The notes: generated by a model from the sequence alone, not told the origin. A stretch of DNA of 20,336 nucleotides from a virus (IMGVR_UViG_2617271085_000008:1-20336), one strand, 5' to 3'; positions 241-7,686 are shown, counted from the first letter of the stretch. Translations and numbers: made by a program.

Positions 241-576
241 ATGAAGTGGATTGTGATTGATACAGTTATCCAGCCATCATGCGGAATATCTTTTTCAGTC
301 ATATGGAGTAAAATAAAATTAATAATCTGGTATCAATCGGATGCTTTCTTACCTCCTGAAAGTATATTTACACTGACTCACACAGGCATCATGCTCAATA
401 ACAAAGTGCTACCTGTAACCATTTACAACGTAGTACCATTCAATAAAACATTATGGAATTTAATCAAAAACAGCCAGGAATGCCCTACAAATACAGATAA
501 CGTATTGAATGAATGCTTTAATAACCGTTGCACTCTGCAAATATGTCCTTATGGGCTAAAACAACAAAGTCCATAA
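241..576 (+). CDS. Hypothetical protein (111 aa) in AT-rich DNA; may be spurious
   Basis: ORF with AAGGAAA Shine-Dalgarno 5 nt upstream of ATG; very AT-rich and Cys-rich; no recognisable motifs. Confidence 0.2.
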
Positions 577-2931: not shown

Positions 2932-3129
2932 TCACTGAGGAAGGCGTCTGTAACAACCGAACTGATAATCTGCCAGACCCGCCATAACAAGCTGGGTCAG
3001 TATTAGCTGGCAGCGTTCGCGTGAAAGGTAAGTATTCTGCGCAATTTCCCCGACGGTCGCCGGTTCGGTGACGCTTAATTCATTAAACACCACTCTGGCA
3101 GTTTCGGTCATATCCTGCTGTTTTAGCAT
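2932..3129 (-). CDS. Small hypothetical protein (65 aa), possible DNA-binding protein; start chosen at internal ATG
   Basis: Longer ORF 2932..3366 has no convincing start; internal ATG at 3129 preceded by AAGGGA; product MLKQQDMTETARVVFNELSVTEPATVGEIAQNTYLSRERCQLILTQLV looks helix-turn-helix-like; weak. Confidence 0.3.
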   Translation of the reverse strand: MLKQQDMTETARVVFNELSVTEPATVGEIAQNTYLSRERCQLILTQLVMAGLADYQFGCYRRLPQ

Positions 3130-3252
3130 GTCTTTTTCCCTTTTCTGGTTAACGTGACATACCAATAACTCTTGTCTGAAAAGCCAGCAAGCTGAAAGAC
3201 CGGTATTCGCAACCACCAGCACGTTTAACGTACTGCGCCGTTTTTCGGACAC

Positions 3253-3276
3253 AAAAAACCGCCTGGCGGCGGGTTT
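3253..3276 (-). terminator. Intrinsic terminator-like hairpin (mainly minus-strand, possibly bidirectional)
   Basis: CCGCC-TGGC-GGCGG stem-loop (3259-3272) flanked by AAAAAA (3253-3258) and TTT (3274-3276); on the minus strand the hairpin is followed by TTTTTTGTG. Confidence 0.4.
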
Positions 3277-3321
3277 AAGCTGTGTGGCGTAGTAACCACT
3301 CTTAACACGATATAATATTTT

Positions 3322-3350
3322 TTGCGTACGCGTTATAGTTTTCTTACAAT
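3322..3350 (+). promoter_or_regulatory. Candidate sigma70 promoter for the DUF262-HEPN operon
   Basis: TTGCGT (3322-3327), 17-bp spacer, TACAAT (3345-3350), about 30 nt upstream of the ATG at 3383; a perfect TATAAT also occurs at 3311-3316 without a good -35. Confidence 0.35.
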
Positions 3351-3382
3351 CTATTTCCAACTCCAATTAAAGGAACAGTGAT

Positions 3383-4540
3383 ATGACCACACTCAAAGAA
3401 CTCAAAGAAGAGCTTGCTCAGATTCAAGATGAAAACGCGAAAAATAGAAAAAAAGCTGAAATTGCAGCCTTGGTCACTTCTGCCGACAACGAGATTAGGC
3501 TTGCTCAGAGAAATATTGGATACAACGTACGTGAATGGACCGTTGAATTAATTGTACAAAAGTATGGCAATAATCTTGAAACTGACAAAAACGAACTTTT
3601 TATTCCTGATTATCAACGCGATTACAAATGGGATATCAAAACAGCCTCTCGATTCATCGAAAGTATATTATTAGATTTTCCAATCCCGTACCTCTACATC
3701 TCCGACGTATTTAATGAAGATCCTGAGTTGGATGGTCGTGTAGAAATTATTGACGGTTCACAAAGGATTCGCTCAATTTACTACTTTTGGAACAATCAGT
3801 TTGAATTGAAAGACTTAAAAGAACTCAAAAGTTTAGAGGGCTTCAAATTTTCAGATCTTTTGGCTAGCCGCCAGAGGCGATTTTTAAGGGCATCACTAAG
3901 ATTTATTGAATTGAAAGGTGATGTTGAGGAGCAACATAGAAGAGATTTATTCGAAAGAATAAATTCAGGTGTTAAGAGACTGGAAGCGATGGAGGTTAGA
4001 CATGGTTCAGATGCGGCCACTTCAATTTTCTATAGGGATGTTGTGACTCCTTGCTCAACAAATCCACTTTTCGCTAGTCTAGCTCCATTATCAGACCGGA
4101 AACGTTCGAATGGCGATCATCGTGAGTTAGTTTTGAGATTTTTTGCATACTTAAATGATTTAGAAAATTATAAGGGTTATGTCGCTCCTTTTATTGACAA
4201 TTATCTTAATGTTCAGGCCGAAAGGGTCACACAACAAGATGTAGACAAATTTAAACATGATTTTGAAAGCATGCTTGCTTTTGTAGATGCTCATTTCCCT
4301 ATGGGGTTTAAAAAGACACCAACAAGCAAAACCACCCCCCGTGCTAGATACGAAGCCATAGCAGTGGGAACTGCTCTTGCCTTAAAAGCCAATCCACATC
4401 TACAGGCTCCGGTTATTCCTGTAGGAGACTGGCTGTTTGGGGAGGAATTTGAAACCATAGTTACTGCTGATAGTGCCAACAACACCAGCCAACTCAAAAA
4501 CAGAATATTTTATGTCAAAGATAAATTATTAGGAATGTAA
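3383..4540 (+). CDS. DUF262 / ParB-like (GmrS N-terminal-like) domain protein; candidate defence NTPase/sensor
   Basis: 385-aa ORF with AAAGGAA Shine-Dalgarno; motifs FIPDYQRDYKW and EIIDGSQRIRS match the DUF262 signature (YQR..W and DGxQR); no His-Me/HNH (DUF1524-type) motif seen in the C-terminal half; AT-rich relative to the prophage backbone. Confidence 0.8.
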   Translation: MTTLKELKEELAQIQDENAKNRKKAEIAALVTSADNEIRLAQRNIGYNVREWTVELIVQKYGNNLETDKNELFIPDYQRDYKWDIKTASRFIESILLDFPIPYLYISDVFNEDPELDGRVEIIDGSQRIRSIYYFWNNQFELKDLKELKSLEGFKFSDLLASRQRRFLRASLRFIELKGDVEEQHRRDLFERINSGVKRLEAMEVRHGSDAATSIFYRDVVTPCSTNPLFASLAPLSDRKRSNGDHRELVLRFFAYLNDLENYKGYVAPFIDNYLNVQAERVTQQDVDKFKHDFESMLAFVDAHFPMGFKKTPTSKTTPRARYEAIAVGTALALKANPHLQAPVIPVGDWLFGEEFETIVTADSANNTSQLKNRIFYVKDKLLGM

Positions 4541-4542
4541 CT

Positions 4543-5232
4543 ATGAGTTTGATTGATTTAAGAGATGAATACGAAGAAAGAGCAAGAGATATTATGGAAT
4601 TGCTTTCTCTTGCTTCATCTTTAGAGGCTCAGACTCAGCAGTTAGATCAGCAAACGCATAAAGATGAAATAGAATCAAATACCCTTAGGGTTAACATTTT
4701 AAAATCATCCGTGCACATGATGCTGTACAATCAGGTTGAAAACACTGCCAGAGGATGCATTGAGTCAATTTATGACCATTTGCAAGATAATGAAGTAAAT
4801 TACGCATCACTCAGGGAGAAATTCCAAGTAAATATCTTGCACCGTATCATTTCAGATAATGAATCGGGAAAATCTCTTTATCAAAAAATTGGTTCCGATA
4901 TATCTAAAAGGATCATTTCAGCCTCATTAAACATACGTAAAGAATTCAATGGTAATGTTTGCAAGTCTGTATTGCACAAAATAACACAAGCTTACGGAAT
5001 AACTGTTGCAAACTCACCAGAGTGTAGAAATGGTGTTGACTTAGATTTACTTAAAGATATCAGAAATGAGCTGGCACATGGAAGTACCAGCTTTTCTAAA
5101 AAAGGTCAAATAGACCCTTTAGAAGAAGTCAAATCGAGGTCAGAAAGAATTGATCTATATTTGCGTTTATTAATCAACTCAACAGAAAATTATATTACCT
5201 CTAACGGGTATTTATCCCCTCAACATGTCTGA
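4543..5232 (+). CDS. HEPN-motif protein (putative nuclease/effector partner of the DUF262 protein)
   Basis: 229-aa ORF whose ATG lies 2 nt after the upstream stop (translational coupling), Shine-Dalgarno AGGAA; C-terminal RNELAHG matches the Rx4H HEPN-type motif; assignment is by motif only. Confidence 0.6.
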   Translation: MSLIDLRDEYEERARDIMELLSLASSLEAQTQQLDQQTHKDEIESNTLRVNILKSSVHMMLYNQVENTARGCIESIYDHLQDNEVNYASLREKFQVNILHRIISDNESGKSLYQKIGSDISKRIISASLNIRKEFNGNVCKSVLHKITQAYGITVANSPECRNGVDLDLLKDIRNELAHGSTSFSKKGQIDPLEEVKSRSERIDLYLRLLINSTENYITSNGYLSPQHV

Positions 5233-6241
5233 TAAATGTTTCCCCTATTATCTGACCAATTATAGGGGGAACAGCATTTCCAATCATTGTCCCCAATTTT
5301 TGGAATGAAAAAGGCGTCTCCTTGTCAAGGAATTTATAATCCATTGGAAAGGATTGCAAAATCGCAGCTTCACGCAAAGTTATGGCGCGATTTTGCTCAG
5401 GATGGCCAAATCGTCCATTTCCATATCCATAACACTGGGTAGTTATCGTAGGGCTAGTATCGTCCCAAACCATCCGTCCATAAACGCTTTTATAGGTAGC
5501 ACCTGAATTCTTTTTATGACAGTCTGCTCTAATTTCTTCAGGCCAGTCATCCCACGTACCACCAGGTAAAGAATGCATGATTCGTTTAAGATTGATATCC
5601 ATCAATTTAGGCGAACGATGCAAGGGATCGCTTTCCAGCTTCTCACCTGCCCCTACTTTTGGCAACCTACCAATAGCATCCTTAACAGTAACTTTACGGC
5701 TAACTTTTTTTTGATCAAGGCTGATCGGCCCCAATTGGGAACCAATTAGAATTAATCTACGTCTATTTTGAGGTAAGCCATACTCAGAACATCTTACAAC
5801 GTCGTACCACAAATGATATCCAAGAGTCTTTAATGCACTAACAAACCCTTCAAAAACCTTATGGTTTCTAAGTTGAGGAACATTCTCCATCGTCACAAGC
5901 TCTGGCATGACATCACTTACAAGCCTTTGAAACTCATATAACAAACGCCACTTTGTATCGTCTTTACGGCTATTTGGATTACGATACTTGGAAAACGGTT
6001 GGCAAGGAGCACATCCAGCAAGCAATCTAATATTTCCTTCCTTGAACATAGCAGACACATCGCAGGATTGCAGTTCTGTAACTGACTGATTAATGAACTG
6101 CGTTAAAGGATTATTGCTCTCAATAGCAAAACGGCAGGATTCATCAATATCAATACCATGAGAAACCTCAATCCCGGCTTTTTTTAGCCCAAAAGTTAAG
6201 CCCCCCGCACCACAAAAAATGTCTACTGCCTGAATGTTCAC
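5201..6241 (-). CDS. DNA (cytosine-5)-methyltransferase
   Basis: 346-aa ORF, GTG start with GGAG Shine-Dalgarno; motif I FCGAGG, motif IV GCAPCQPFS (PC catalytic dipeptide), ENV and QNRRR motifs; 3' end overlaps the convergent HEPN gene by 32 bp. Confidence 0.9.
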   Translation of the reverse strand: MNIQAVDIFCGAGGLTFGLKKAGIEVSHGIDIDESCRFAIESNNPLTQFINQSVTELQSCDVSAMFKEGNIRLLAGCAPCQPFSKYRNPNSRKDDTKWRLLYEFQRLVSDVMPELVTMENVPQLRNHKVFEGFVSALKTLGYHLWYDVVRCSEYGLPQNRRRLILIGSQLGPISLDQKKVSRKVTVKDAIGRLPKVGAGEKLESDPLHRSPKLMDINLKRIMHSLPGGTWDDWPEEIRADCHKKNSGATYKSVYGRMVWDDTSPTITTQCYGYGNGRFGHPEQNRAITLREAAILQSFPMDYKFLDKETPFSFQKLGTMIGNAVPPIIGQIIGETFIRHVEGINTR

Positions 6242-6261
6242 AAGATTCTCCGTTACTTTAT

Positions 6262-6300
6262 CCTGGTATTATATACACATAAAAGTTGGGAAAGTAGAAC
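6262..6300 (-). promoter_or_regulatory. Candidate promoter immediately downstream of the Q-like gene (possible late promoter PR'-like, or MTase promoter)
   Basis: Minus-strand TATAAT (complement of 6268-6273) about 30 nt upstream of the MTase GTG start, in the 63-bp gap after the Q-like stop; -35 is weak. Confidence 0.3.
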
Positions 6301-6304
6301 GATT

Positions 6305-6688
6305 TTACATAGAACTTAAGTCATTGTAGTAAATGAAAAATGACAAGCAGCCATCAATAAACCCCATTGCTGTTTGCATCTCTTTCCGTATTGTTCCATC
6401 TGAACATTTCCGTTTTTTAGCAATAGCGCGTAATGAGATACCAATAACAAAGTGAGCAATGATCAACTCATACTCTTCGGGTTTATACTTTCGCAACCGA
6501 GCCACACAACCGTCTATCATGATACCTTCGTCATCATCACACTGGAGACGTGACTTTTTACCGTGTGGTAAAAGCCCCTTGAAGCCTGCTGCTATCGGCT
6601 GCCAGTCCACACCACTGTTATCTGCTGCAGCCCATGCCCCCCAACGTTCAAGAACCATCTGAATATCACGCATCAACTTTCTCCACAA
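6305..6688 (-). CDS. Phage antitermination protein Q-like (short Q family of E. coli prophages)
   Basis: 127-aa ORF with N-terminus MRDIQMVLERWGAWAA, recalled as characteristic of short Q-like antiterminators; position at the end of the replication/nin operon. Confidence 0.7.
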   Translation of the reverse strand: MWRKLMRDIQMVLERWGAWAAADNSGVDWQPIAAGFKGLLPHGKKSRLQCDDDEGIMIDGCVARLRKYKPEEYELIIAHFVIGISLRAIAKKRKCSDGTIRKEMQTAMGFIDGCLSFFIYYNDLSSM

Positions 6689-6690
6689 AA

Positions 6691-7686
6691 TCAGGCCAGC
6701 ACGCCAATTGCCAGCGCACGATCGATAAAACGAAATATCAGCTCCAGTTGGGAACCATACTTCTCTTCAAATGCCACGGTATCCGCATGCAGTTCGTCAT
6801 GGTGTTTTCTGCACAAAGGCAACACAAAAAGGTCATGCGCTTTTGTACCCATTCCACCCTGACCATGACCAATCAGGTGATGAGGATCGTCGGCTGGCTT
6901 ACCACAACATGCACACGGCTGCGTCTTAACCCAGCGCGTGTACTTTTCATTAACCCAGCGGCGACGTTTTGGGCGTAACATAAAAGACTCCGGCGACTCC
7001 GGATCCACTTTCAGCGCCAGCACCTTTTTCGCCTTATCCTGGATGATGCTGGTGGCAGGAACCGAAGGCACAAGGTCACTTTCCCGGGTGACAGACGGCA
7101 CAACAGGCTTCGGTAATCTCAGTGCCTTACGGGCTGCACTTTCCGGTAAGGCATCCGCCAGGTCATTACGAATCAGCCACCAGCACAGTTCCGGCATTGT
7201 CACAACGTGACTGTCATCAAAACCAAGATCACGGCGCACAACAGACAACACCCAGCGGGCACAGTTATCCGTTGCCATTGCTTCCAGCCGTTCCGTGAAC
7301 TGGTCACGGAGAAGATTGTCACAGTGCCAGCACAGACGGATTGCGCCTGGCGCGTGCCGCATTGTGGTCATGTTCTCGCTGTGCCAGTCGGAATGAGGCC
7401 ACTGACAGCCTTTTTCACGAAGTAACCAGCTCTCAAGGCATTCCACGCCACCAGCACGACGGATCACCGCCTCATGGCGGAACACGGCCCGAACGGCAGG
7501 ATCATCCGCCAGCGGTTGTGATGCTGCCGGAACGGCACCACTGGCAAAAGATGAATAACGTTCCGGCTCAGGCTCCAGCAGGACACGCCCCTGCATAAAC
7601 AGGGGCATCAGCTCTGAACCGGGTCTGAACAAGACGATCCCCATACGCGGGGCAATTTCAGGGGTCAGCAGTGCTCTCACGGTCAC
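6691..7686 (-). CDS. Prophage protein with C-terminal Cys/His-rich HNH-like motif (DUF968-like)
   Basis: 331-aa ORF ending 3 nt before the Q-like start; C-terminal CACCGKPADDPHHLIGHG...CRKHHDELH metal-binding-like cluster. Confidence 0.55.
   Translation of the reverse strand: MTVRALLTPEIAPRMGIVLFRPGSELMPLFMQGRVLLEPEPERYSSFASGAVPAASQPLADDPAVRAVFRHEAVIRRAGGVECLESWLLREKGCQWPHSDWHSENMTTMRHAPGAIRLCWHCDNLLRDQFTERLEAMATDNCARWVLSVVRRDLGFDDSHVVTMPELCWWLIRNDLADALPESAARKALRLPKPVVPSVTRESDLVPSVPATSIIQDKAKKVLALKVDPESPESFMLRPKRRRWVNEKYTRWVKTQPCACCGKPADDPHHLIGHGQGGMGTKAHDLFVLPLCRKHHDELHADTVAFEEKYGSQLELIFRFIDRALAIGVLA

Follow-up and report, generated by a model that had tools for sequence, protein, structure and literature searches.

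Defence systems that pair a DUF262 protein with a HEPN protein, such as PD-T4-2, have been validated yet are mechanistically unexplained, including in the way they discriminate phage from self. A specific version of this question is raised by three adjacent genes at positions 3383–6241 of a viral sequence of 20,336 nucleotides (IMGVR_UViG_2617271085_000008:1-20336; "the window" hereafter denotes this whole stretch). Here, in an Escherichia coli prophage, a DUF262–HEPN pair faces a convergent gene for a C5-cytosine methyltransferase (MTase). Does the MTase belong to the system and, if so, what does it do for the other two proteins? The reading that we favour, and to which we would give about an even chance of being correct, is that the locus is a mobile three-gene defence cassette of the class "ParB(DUF262) + MAE_28990-HEPN + DNA methylase", in which self-marking by 5-methylcytosine (m5C) gates a HEPN RNase. 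Two results lead to it: the C5-MTase is an ancestral and integral component of the family, for which we present new evidence, and the DUF262 protein contains a C-terminal site that varies with the presence of the MTase.

Open reading frame (ORF) calling gave three genes in the cassette, two on the plus strand and a third, convergent, on the minus strand. P1 (3383–4540, plus strand) encodes 385 amino acids and is a DUF262/ParB-type NTPase, a putative DNA or modification sensor. P2 (4543–5232, plus strand; 229 amino acids) is a standalone HEPN protein of the MAE_28990/RiboL-PSP type and the putative RNase effector, and P3 (5201–6241, minus strand; 346 amino acids, GTG start) is a C5-cytosine MTase and the putative writer of a self mark. 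The TAA stop codon of P1 is separated by 2 nt from the ATG of P2, with an AGGA Shine–Dalgarno sequence within the 3′ end of P1, and P2 is translationally coupled to P1. The 3′ ends of the HEPN and MTase genes overlap by 32 bp (5201–5232), bounded by the P2 TGA at 5230–5232 and the P3 TAG at 5201–5203 on the minus strand. The GC content of the three-gene module is 38.5%, compared to 52–53% in either flank. A preliminary description of the locus had reported two coupled AT-rich genes, a convergent MTase and the 32-bp overlap, and had quoted the motifs FIPDYQRDYKW, IIDGSQRIRS, RNELAHG, FCGAGG, PCQ, ENV and QNRRR; all of these were confirmed in the ORFs, the junctions and the base composition.

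P1 matches the Pfam family GmrSD_N/DUF262 with E = 1e-25. In the AlphaFold2 (AF2) model (pLDDT 88), an α/β ParB-like domain is followed by an all-helical C-terminal domain, with a flexible hinge at residues 196–201; the DUF262/ParB-type NTPase domain spans residues ~45–195 and the helical, "ParBDB-like" domain residues ~203–385. The top solved structure in a Foldseek search was BrxU (7p9k, prob 1.0), followed by ParB/Noc CTPases and SspE, and these matches cover only the N-terminal and helical parts of P1. All three DUF262 motifs, as defined in PMC12065111, are present on the plus strand: motif I (QRxxxW) as YQRDYKW at residues 77–83 (3611–3631), motif II (DGxQR), the NTP-binding centre, as DGSQR at residues 124–128 (3752–3766), and motif III (FxxxN) as FERIN at residues 190–194 (3950–3964). 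Motif I is invariant in homologs with and without a linked MTase, motif II is likewise invariant, and in motif III this holds for N194 and nearly so for F190. The three motifs were kept in 61/61 P1 homologs, and many arginines were similarly invariant across the family.

The preliminary description had also noted a DUF262 protein without its usual DUF1524 partner. Pfam, PADLOC and the fold search agree on this point, and a complete GmrSD fusion was not seen. No Pfam match to DUF1524 was obtained in P1, P2 or their neighbours at E ≤ 0.1, and the possibility of a hidden nuclease domain in P1 was ruled out by the same three approaches, which gave neither a DUF1524/His-Me nor a PD-(D/E)XK domain. 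These results bear on a model by Anantharaman et al. (2013), according to which such a locus would be a type II-like restriction–modification (R-M) system with a fail-safe: P1 would be a DNase ("ParB nuclease") acting on unmethylated DNA, and the HEPN protein a suicide arm for when restriction is overwhelmed. The model is supported by Table 1 and the R-M section of PMC3710099, by the convergent, R/M-like gene layout, and by the fact that some relatives of P1 match the PADLOC/REBASE-derived "REase_II" model (E from 6e-12 to 9e-7). However, P1 of the window itself gives no match to REase_II and has no recognisable nuclease fold, and in the characterised relatives DUF262/ParB is an NTPase switch, while the DNase activity resides in DUF1524. 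We consider this model very unlikely for the locus described here.

The second protein had been proposed to be a HEPN protein, and its family, fold and motif all bear this out. P2 matches HEPN_MAE_28990 (PF18737) with E = 3.8e-16 and HEPN_RiboL-PSP with E = 6.7e-8, and its AF2 model (pLDDT 96.3) has the RNase-type HEPN fold. An exhaustive search for its homologs gave 728 cluster representatives, and the top 150 listed are all standalone proteins of about 220–250 amino acids. The predicted catalytic Rx4H motif, R174-N-E-L-A-H179, is encoded at 5062–5079 on the plus strand; R174 and H179, together with Y62, N63 and E66, were invariant in 50 divergent homologs. The Rx4H motif was intact in 28/28 loci that contain all three genes ("trios") and in 32/33 loci with only the DUF262 and HEPN genes ("pair-only" loci). 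An apparent loss of the motif in five pair-only loci was an artefact of the regular expression used, and Rx4H is intact in four of them. P3 matches PF00145 (DNA_methylase) with E = 9.5e-54 and the NCBIfam dcm superfamily with E = 6e-35, and contains motifs I (FCGAGG), IV (PCQ), VI (ENV), VIII (QNRRR), IX and X. No close solved or characterised homologues of P3 were found.

The HEPN family is too divergent for a HEPN-anchored pattern search to be suitable. One genome per species was therefore scanned with DUF262 as the anchor, which gave 79 loci that were annotated with custom hidden Markov models. The HEPN gene lies directly downstream of the DUF262 gene in 58 of the 59 evaluable full-length loci in this species-level set, with gaps between −3 and +10 nt, and P1 and P2 co-diverge (Mantel rho 0.85). 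A C5-MTase is adjacent to 25 of these 58 pairs, convergent in 23 cases, where it mostly overlaps the HEPN gene, and upstream and co-directional in two; the remaining 33 are pair-only. In 22 of the 23 convergent loci, the MTase gene sits tail to tail with the HEPN gene, the spacing between them ranging from −65 to +11 nt. On plasmids and phages the MTase was linked in 12/15 loci, and in IMG/VR all 56 of 56 evaluable viral loci were trios. Trios are found in Gamma-, Alpha- and Betaproteobacteria, Desulfobacterota, Lentisphaerae, Cyanobacteria, Actinomycetota and phages. The DUF262→HEPN←C5-MTase arrangement occurs in Pseudoalteromonas (by a Tn7-like tnsCDE), in Vibrio (in an integrase/AlpA/VapE island), in Pseudomonas (by McrBC) and in Klebsiella prophages. 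Further trios occupy the P2-like phage hotspot, Moraxella phages, and plasmids of Klebsiella, Roseomonas, Polaromonas, Azospirillum, Sinorhizobium, Phaeobacter, Rhizobium and Rhodococcus; several of those on plasmids and phages form a single co-directional DUF262→HEPN→MTase operon.

The convergent MTases belong mostly to one orthologous lineage, 48–57% identical to P3, with those of Cyanobacteria included. Across the convergent loci the MTase is the best conserved of the three window proteins, with P1 at 41–47% and P2 at 24–30% identity. The target recognition domain of the orthologous MTases has a mean pairwise identity of 61%, compared to 55% in the catalytic cores. Non-orthologous MTases with 27–30% identity were found at three loci of the species set (L010, L024 and L031, in our numbering of loci) and at one of the plasmid and phage set (L100). 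Those of L010, L024 and L100 are assigned by Pfam to the PF00145 C5 family, and that of L031 was found with a custom C5-MTase profile. A replacement or re-oriented MTase is always a PF00145 C5-MTase. In the tree of DUF262 proteins, the trio is the basal state, from which one large cyanobacterial pair-only clade and sporadic further losses depart. The MTase is an ancestral and integral component of the system rather than a chance neighbour, and its inclusion in the module by the preliminary description holds across the species, plasmid and viral loci.

An accessory role for the MTase has to be weighed against this distribution. A PD-T4-2-like pair might sense infection independently of methylation, through hypermodified phage DNA or some other cue, with the MTase separately serving the mobile element, for instance by shielding prophage or plasmid DNA from restriction or in epigenetic regulation. 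Such a role would suit the abundance of pair-only loci that keep their catalytic motifs, the activity of PD-T4-2 without a cloned MTase, the promoter-like signals that P3 has of its own and its transcription in the phage late direction, and the presence in the same prophage of a second, unrelated N6-MTase. It is at odds with an orthologous MTase that stays linked from Proteobacteria to Cyanobacteria and Actinomycetota, mostly by a tail-to-tail overlap or in one operon, with non-orthologous replacements that are always C5-MTases, with the finding of trios at 56/56 viral loci, and with residues N366 and R322 of P1, which co-vary with the presence of the MTase (see below). An accessory MTase therefore seems to us rather unlikely.

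The pair-only loci lie among housekeeping genes, with no substitute methylase. The NTPase motifs are kept in 33/33 of them. At two (L064 and L084), C-terminal remnants of an MTase are found on the convergent strand.

The residues just mentioned emerged from a comparison of P1 orthologs with and without a linked MTase, in which the NTPase motifs were identical and a few C-terminal positions differed. The residue most tightly coupled to the C5-MTase is N366, which is found in 97/97 MTase-linked loci, but in only 1/36 MTase-less loci. R322 (4346–4348) is an arginine in 91/97 MTase-linked and 2/36 MTase-less loci, and W350 (4430–4432), which is less strictly coupled, is a tryptophan in 94/97 and 8/36, respectively. 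N366 and D363 belong to the sequence A-D-S-A-N-N (residues 362–367; 4466–4483, like the others on the plus strand), with the consensus S-D-x-x-N. The MTase was lost independently in three lineages, represented by locus L057, locus L078 and the large cyanobacterial clade. Out of 62 columns that are invariant among trios, only R322 and N366 had changed in all three of these lineages, where 0.057 such columns would be expected. In L057, three of the four changes fall in this C-terminal cluster. In the pair-only proteins, positions 322 and 366 carry new conserved residues, K322 and S366.

The same site was then recovered out of sample. R322, D363 and N366 were kept in 12/12 MTase-linked plasmid and phage loci, regardless of the orientation or lineage of the MTase. 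In the three MTase-less loci of that set, D363 and N366 were lost from all three and R322 was kept in one. The 56 viral trios all keep W350, D363 and N366, and R322 is replaced by phenylalanine in one lineage of six loci. This convergence and blind replication argue that the C-terminal domain of P1 is functionally coupled to cytosine-5 methylation. Since the coupling survives replacement of the MTase by a non-orthologous C5-MTase, what the site relates to would be the m5C mark and not one particular MTase protein. Furthermore, hardly any MTase-less locus has an intact site, and the MTase remnants at L064 and L084 lie beside P1 sites that are already substituted; we can thus envisage a scenario in which the sensor has to be re-tuned before loss of the MTase can be tolerated.

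A coupled site would also be expected if m5C were a positive cofactor. Here, P1 would be armed on methylated self DNA, at parS-like sites, and another infection cue would trigger the HEPN protein, so that loss of the MTase inactivates the system rather than killing the cell. There is a precedent in SspE, a DUF262 protein in which stimulation of the NTPase needs the host phosphorothioate modification (PMC10952713). Loss of the MTase is evidently survivable, and pair-only lineages could be using m5C from orphan MTases resident in the cell, of which Dcm in K-12 is an example. However, MTase-less intermediates with an intact site should then be common, and they were seen in 1/36 cases; moreover, the P1 of pair-only loci does not decay at the site, but adopts the new conserved K322 and S366. 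We regard this SspE-like arrangement as unlikely.

In the self-marking mechanism that we propose, P3 would methylate cytosines within a fixed target motif, in the DNA of both host and prophage, and the resulting m5C would constitute the self mark. P1, with its ParB/DUF262 NTPase and a basic helical DNA-binding domain, would load on or scan the DNA and read the cytosine-5 methylation state through a C-terminal site that includes R322, W350 and S-D-x-x-N366. On unmarked DNA, such as that of an incoming phage or plasmid, an NTP-dependent switch in P1 would release or activate P2. The co-translated HEPN RNase would then cleave RNA and thereby block the infection, with growth arrest or abortive infection as the probable route. 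That the cassette acts against phages at all is suggested by analogy with PD-T4-2. In this mechanism, the trigger would be unmethylated DNA, methylation would be read by P1, and RNA targets would be cut by P2. Elements of the scheme have precedents: DUF262 is a modification sensor in GmrSD, BrxU and SspE (PMC10952713, PMC12065111), and HEPN RNases linked to R-M systems have been proposed to act as a second line of defence (PMC3710099). The preliminary description had suggested that the MTase provides self-protection; the coupling between the MTase and the P1 C-terminal site is consistent with this idea. A more extended version of the self-marking mechanism describes the system as R-M in logic, but not in chemistry, with m5C read by a DUF262 NTPase at a dedicated C-terminal site and an output in the form of a HEPN RNase instead of DNA cleavage, so that an epigenetic distinction of self from non-self would drive an effector that targets RNA; the pair-only relatives, possibly including PD-T4-2, would be re-tuned derivatives from which the methyl-reading site was lost. 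We offer this version tentatively, as possible but somewhat short of probable.

Several observations weigh against self-marking. For the trio family, we infer defence, RNase activity and methyl-reading throughout. A linked MTase is missing from 33/58 species-level loci, mostly in one cyanobacterial clade, and their NTPase and Rx4H motifs are intact. PD-T4-2 was cloned and was active without an MTase (PMC9519451). The pair can thus function, and be tolerated, where no methylase is linked to it. The target of PD-T4-2 is T4, which has glucosyl-hydroxymethylcytosine DNA, and this fits better with a type IV-like sensor of modified DNA than with a sensor of unmethylated sites. At the P1 site itself, one MTase-less locus (L051, on a 4.9-kb contig of a metagenome-assembled genome) keeps the full site and is the sole MTase-less case of N366, and the R322F lineage among the viruses is MTase-linked. 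The counts of site residues are phylogenetically non-independent, representing about 4–5 independent loss events. Finally, the neighbours of trios in the species-representative genomes are mostly housekeeping genes and not clearly defence islands. On the other side of the balance, the cassette was found in contexts of mobile elements and of defence, which include the lambdoid Q–lysis site, the P2 hotspot, Tn7-like cargo, an integrase island, and positions near McrBC, HicAB or TIR genes.

Alternatively, the cassette could be a module for addiction (post-segregational killing) instead of an anti-phage system. R-M systems are known to act as addiction modules. By the same principle, loss of the cassette would dilute the methylation and free a longer-lived P1–P2 toxin, thereby stabilising the mobile element, a function that is not exclusive with self-marking for defence. 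Carriage on plasmids, prophages and transposons and the frequent occurrence of HEPN proteins as toxins of toxin–antitoxin systems are in keeping with addiction. The large cyanobacterial clade, however, is chromosomal, syntenic and MTase-less, and the sister system PD-T4-2 is demonstrated to be anti-phage. We therefore hold addiction to be a highly improbable explanation.

How does the cassette relate to systems that have already been described? The preliminary description had called the module undescribed, and this was not borne out: the architecture of the pair is that of PD-T4-2 (PMC9519451), the trio is listed in Table 1 of PMC3710099, and RefSeq has family names for all three proteins ("DUF262 domain-containing protein", "MAE_28990/MAE_18760 family HEPN-like nuclease" and "DNA cytosine methyltransferase"). 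Overall, the interpretation given there is partly supported. The table, by Anantharaman, Makarova, Burroughs, Koonin and Aravind (2013, Biol Direct 8:15), contains an operon of a MAE_28990 HEPN, a ParB and a DNA methylase. Since the window locus has all three of the defining features, a MAE_28990 HEPN with Rx4H, an adjacent ParB-superfamily gene and an adjacent DNA methylase, it is a member of this computationally described class. The class was presented in one line of the table with a generic "R-M plus HEPN fail-safe" model, without a name, experiments or an analysis of the MTase type. The 2013 study did not identify the ParB gene as a nuclease-less, NTPase-type DUF262 sensor, nor the ancestral orthologous C5-MTase or the MTase-coupled site in P1. 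Beyond this table, searches of the searchable literature turned up no work, whether experimental or on the mechanism, that deals with the trio including its MTase.

PD-T4-2 ("DUF262, HEPN"; Vassallo et al. 2022; E. coli ECOR65, QOYX01000002:338334-339873, RCO39066.1) protects against T4 both in its native form and when cloned (PMC9519451, Tables S1–S3). Like the pair described here, it is an operon of two genes found in E. coli, the first encoding a DUF262 protein that lacks DUF1524 and the second a small HEPN protein, and the best HHpred matches of the latter are HEPN_RiboL-PSP and HEPN_MAE_28990, the same two Pfam families that P2 matches. It differs in length, with 1,540 bp for both genes compared to 1,850 bp here, and in that the validated clone has no MTase. 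P1 matches the PADLOC model PD-T4-2_A (4.3e-27) with 93 bits over positions 52–313 of 363, which is below its score with NsnA and is a value for which PADLOC has no curated cut-off. P2 and four of its relatives gave no match to PD-T4-2_B, even at E ≤ 10. The P2-like phage P24B2, an IncF plasmid pair and phage vB_EcoM-689R6 were considered as examples of PD-T4-2 and were ruled out by their PADLOC scores. The relationship between the window locus and PD-T4-2, which rests on profile scores and the published HHpred tables, would be that of a sister family with the same architecture, with membership by sequence not established.

The best PADLOC match of P1 is NsnA of Menshen (NsnABC; Millman 2022; Li et al. 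2025), with 5.6e-46 and 155 bits over profile positions 13–301 of 385. P1 shares with NsnA a two-domain plan of ParB-DUF262 and a helical "ParBDB" DNA-binding domain. However, the ABC-ATPase NsnB and the inPIN-nuclease NsnC are absent, and a HEPN gene and a convergent C5-MTase lie downstream instead; the locus is therefore not Menshen. Short N-terminal matches were obtained to SspE, Orf5 and HEC-05/06. The PADLOC v2 models thus do not call the window family, with partial matches of P1 to NsnA and PD-T4-2_A and none of P2 to PD-T4-2_B.

GmrSD, BrxU and SspE have the DUF262 NTPase with QRxxxW, DGxQR and FxxxN in common with P1, for which BrxU is the best structure match and SspE another. The absence of the DUF1524 His-Me nuclease sets the window locus apart from all three, and its effector is a separate HEPN protein. 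The window system is linked to a writer of the modification, as in Ssp, whereas the type IV enzymes stand alone. From type II R-M systems, with which the cassette shares a cognate DNA MTase (PF00145, all catalytic motifs present), it differs in that there is no restriction endonuclease with a recognised DNase fold, and in the RNase-type HEPN fold of P2. The prophage-borne PD-lambda-5 (Vassallo 2022; "ParB/HEPN, methyltransferase"), described as a compacted prophage combination of R-M and abortive infection, similarly contains ParB-like, HEPN-like and DNA MTase parts, but its ParBc domain (PF02195) is fused to a very weak HEPN signal, and its MTase is a Dam-like D12 N6-adenine MTase. As the domain families differ, PD-lambda-5 was rejected as a fused homologue, and no PD-Lambda-5 model is among the PADLOC matches listed for the window proteins. 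The paradigm for the proposed logic is PrrC-EcoprrI, in which a HEPN anticodon nuclease is embedded in and regulated by an R-M module. PrrC is an ABC-ATPase–HEPN fusion held by a type I R-M complex, whereas the NTPase in the window is of the ParB/DUF262 type and there is no recognisable restriction endonuclease.

In its lambdoid prophage, the cassette is a moron that separates Q from the lysis/tRNA region. The Q antiterminator gene is at 6305–6688 on the minus strand, flanking the cassette, and two tRNA genes, a tRNA-Arg(TCG) and a tRNA with a CAT anticodon, are at 1523–1682, also on the minus strand. The preliminary description had placed the module between Q and the tRNA cluster, at a moron or cargo site, and this is indeed where it was found; the site, flanked by Q and by the lysis genes, is occupied in Klebsiella as well as in two types of E. 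coli prophage. The 3-kb block was present in 107 of 5,426 complete E. coli genomes (about 2%), in two sequence classes with ≥99% and ~87% identity; in one example of each class, the block had DUF968–Q on one side and the lysis genes on the other, within a lambdoid prophage. The DUF968 protein, which has a C-terminal HNHc_6 nuclease-like region, is encoded directly upstream of Q (6691–7686, minus strand), and in Klebsiella, as in both E. coli variants, the cassette comes after this DUF968–Q pair.

Candidate expression signals were read from the sequence on both sides of the cassette. An exact TATAAT at 3311–3316 (plus strand) is a candidate −10 box for the DUF262–HEPN operon, which a consensus promoter scan missed because the −35 element is weak, and an AAGGA Shine–Dalgarno sequence precedes P1 at 3370–3374 (plus strand). 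A candidate promoter and ribosome-binding site for P3 at 6248–6273 (minus strand) consists of an exact TATAAT at 6273–6268 and a GGAG at 6251–6248 upstream of the GTG start at 6241; the window shares this conserved sequence with Klebsiella and with the second E. coli variant. A non-coding RNA, an RNA antitoxin or a repeat array was considered and rejected, with zero Rfam matches at E ≤ 1 and no meaningful repeats. A fourth conserved gene was ruled out, the neighbours being heterogeneous in trio and pair-only loci alike.

Left of the cassette, a 144-codon ORF with a TTG start (2932–3366, minus strand) gave only a weak match to the TrmB family of winged-helix regulators. The real gene is probably shorter, since RefSeq annotates a 198-nt gene at this place in a strain with an identical block. 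Within this ORF, a strong GC hairpin with a run of T residues behind it (CCGCCGCCAGGCGG TTTTTT, minus strand, 3272–3259; region 3251–3277) would terminate leftward transcripts reading antisense through the DUF262–HEPN genes. The second DNA MTase of the prophage, mentioned above (N6_N4_Mtase, PF01555, 349 amino acids), is encoded at 1732–2781 on the minus strand, just upstream of the tRNA genes. In the otherwise identical prophage of BEC1-S17-ESBL-09, this gene is annotated as frameshifted, and there are three tRNAs (Arg, Arg and Ile). The left end of the window is AT-rich (~32% GC) and contains an ORF of 111 codons at 241–576 (plus strand); the equivalent position in BEC1-S17-ESBL-09 is annotated as the anti-adapter protein IraM, and the window copy is a putative one.

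Individual relatives of the cassette also deserve mention. In the Peduovirus P24B2 (L088; LR595873.1, 29078–31979), a full trio is located in the P2-like hotspot next to a replication gene; its P1 retains the R/W/D/N site, and its MTase is split by a single frameshift at a PGG codon run, which could have arisen through an error in sequencing or by inactivation in the recent past. On plasmid pTi932 of Rhizobium tumorigenes (L104), a co-directional DUF262→HEPN→C5-MTase series is followed by the gene for a Vsr very-short-patch repair endonuclease, a usual companion of m5C MTases. The co-directional operon on plasmid pDJL2 of Rhodococcus qingshengii (L097) adjoins a TIR-domain gene. In two Klebsiella pneumoniae prophages (L006 and L007), the cassette lies between Q and a HicAB toxin–antitoxin pair, and further upstream the two differ, one having an R-M system of the BsuBI/PstI type and the other a gene for a reverse transcriptase (RVT_1), so that one prophage carries several defence-type cargo genes. 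Pair-only cyanobacteria (L041, L043, L054, L055, L062, L070, L076 and L079 in Nostocales; L034 and L036) have syntenic housekeeping neighbourhoods, with aconitase B immediately upstream in eight pair-only cyanobacterial loci and ClpB in others. This synteny suggests long-term vertical inheritance of a "domesticated" DUF262–HEPN pair. In Escherichia phage vB_EcoM-689R6 (L092; ON470584.1, 35567–37278), a DUF262 gene adjoins the integrase gene at the icd attachment site, and after it comes an unrelated protein of 216 amino acids with no Pfam or PADLOC matches; here, too, the effector may have been swapped on a DUF262 chassis.

The E. coli prophage locus thus belongs to a large and ancient family, the ancestral form of which has a dedicated C5-MTase and dominates in phages, plasmids and transposons. 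That PADLOC v2 leaves uncalled a family found in about 2% of complete E. coli genomes reveals a gap in the catalogues of defence systems. What is new here is the evidence that the C5-MTase is ancestral and integral and that P1 has a site coupled to it, which together lead to a specific and testable model of self-marking. If the model is true, the family would represent an R-M-like system with an RNase as its effector.

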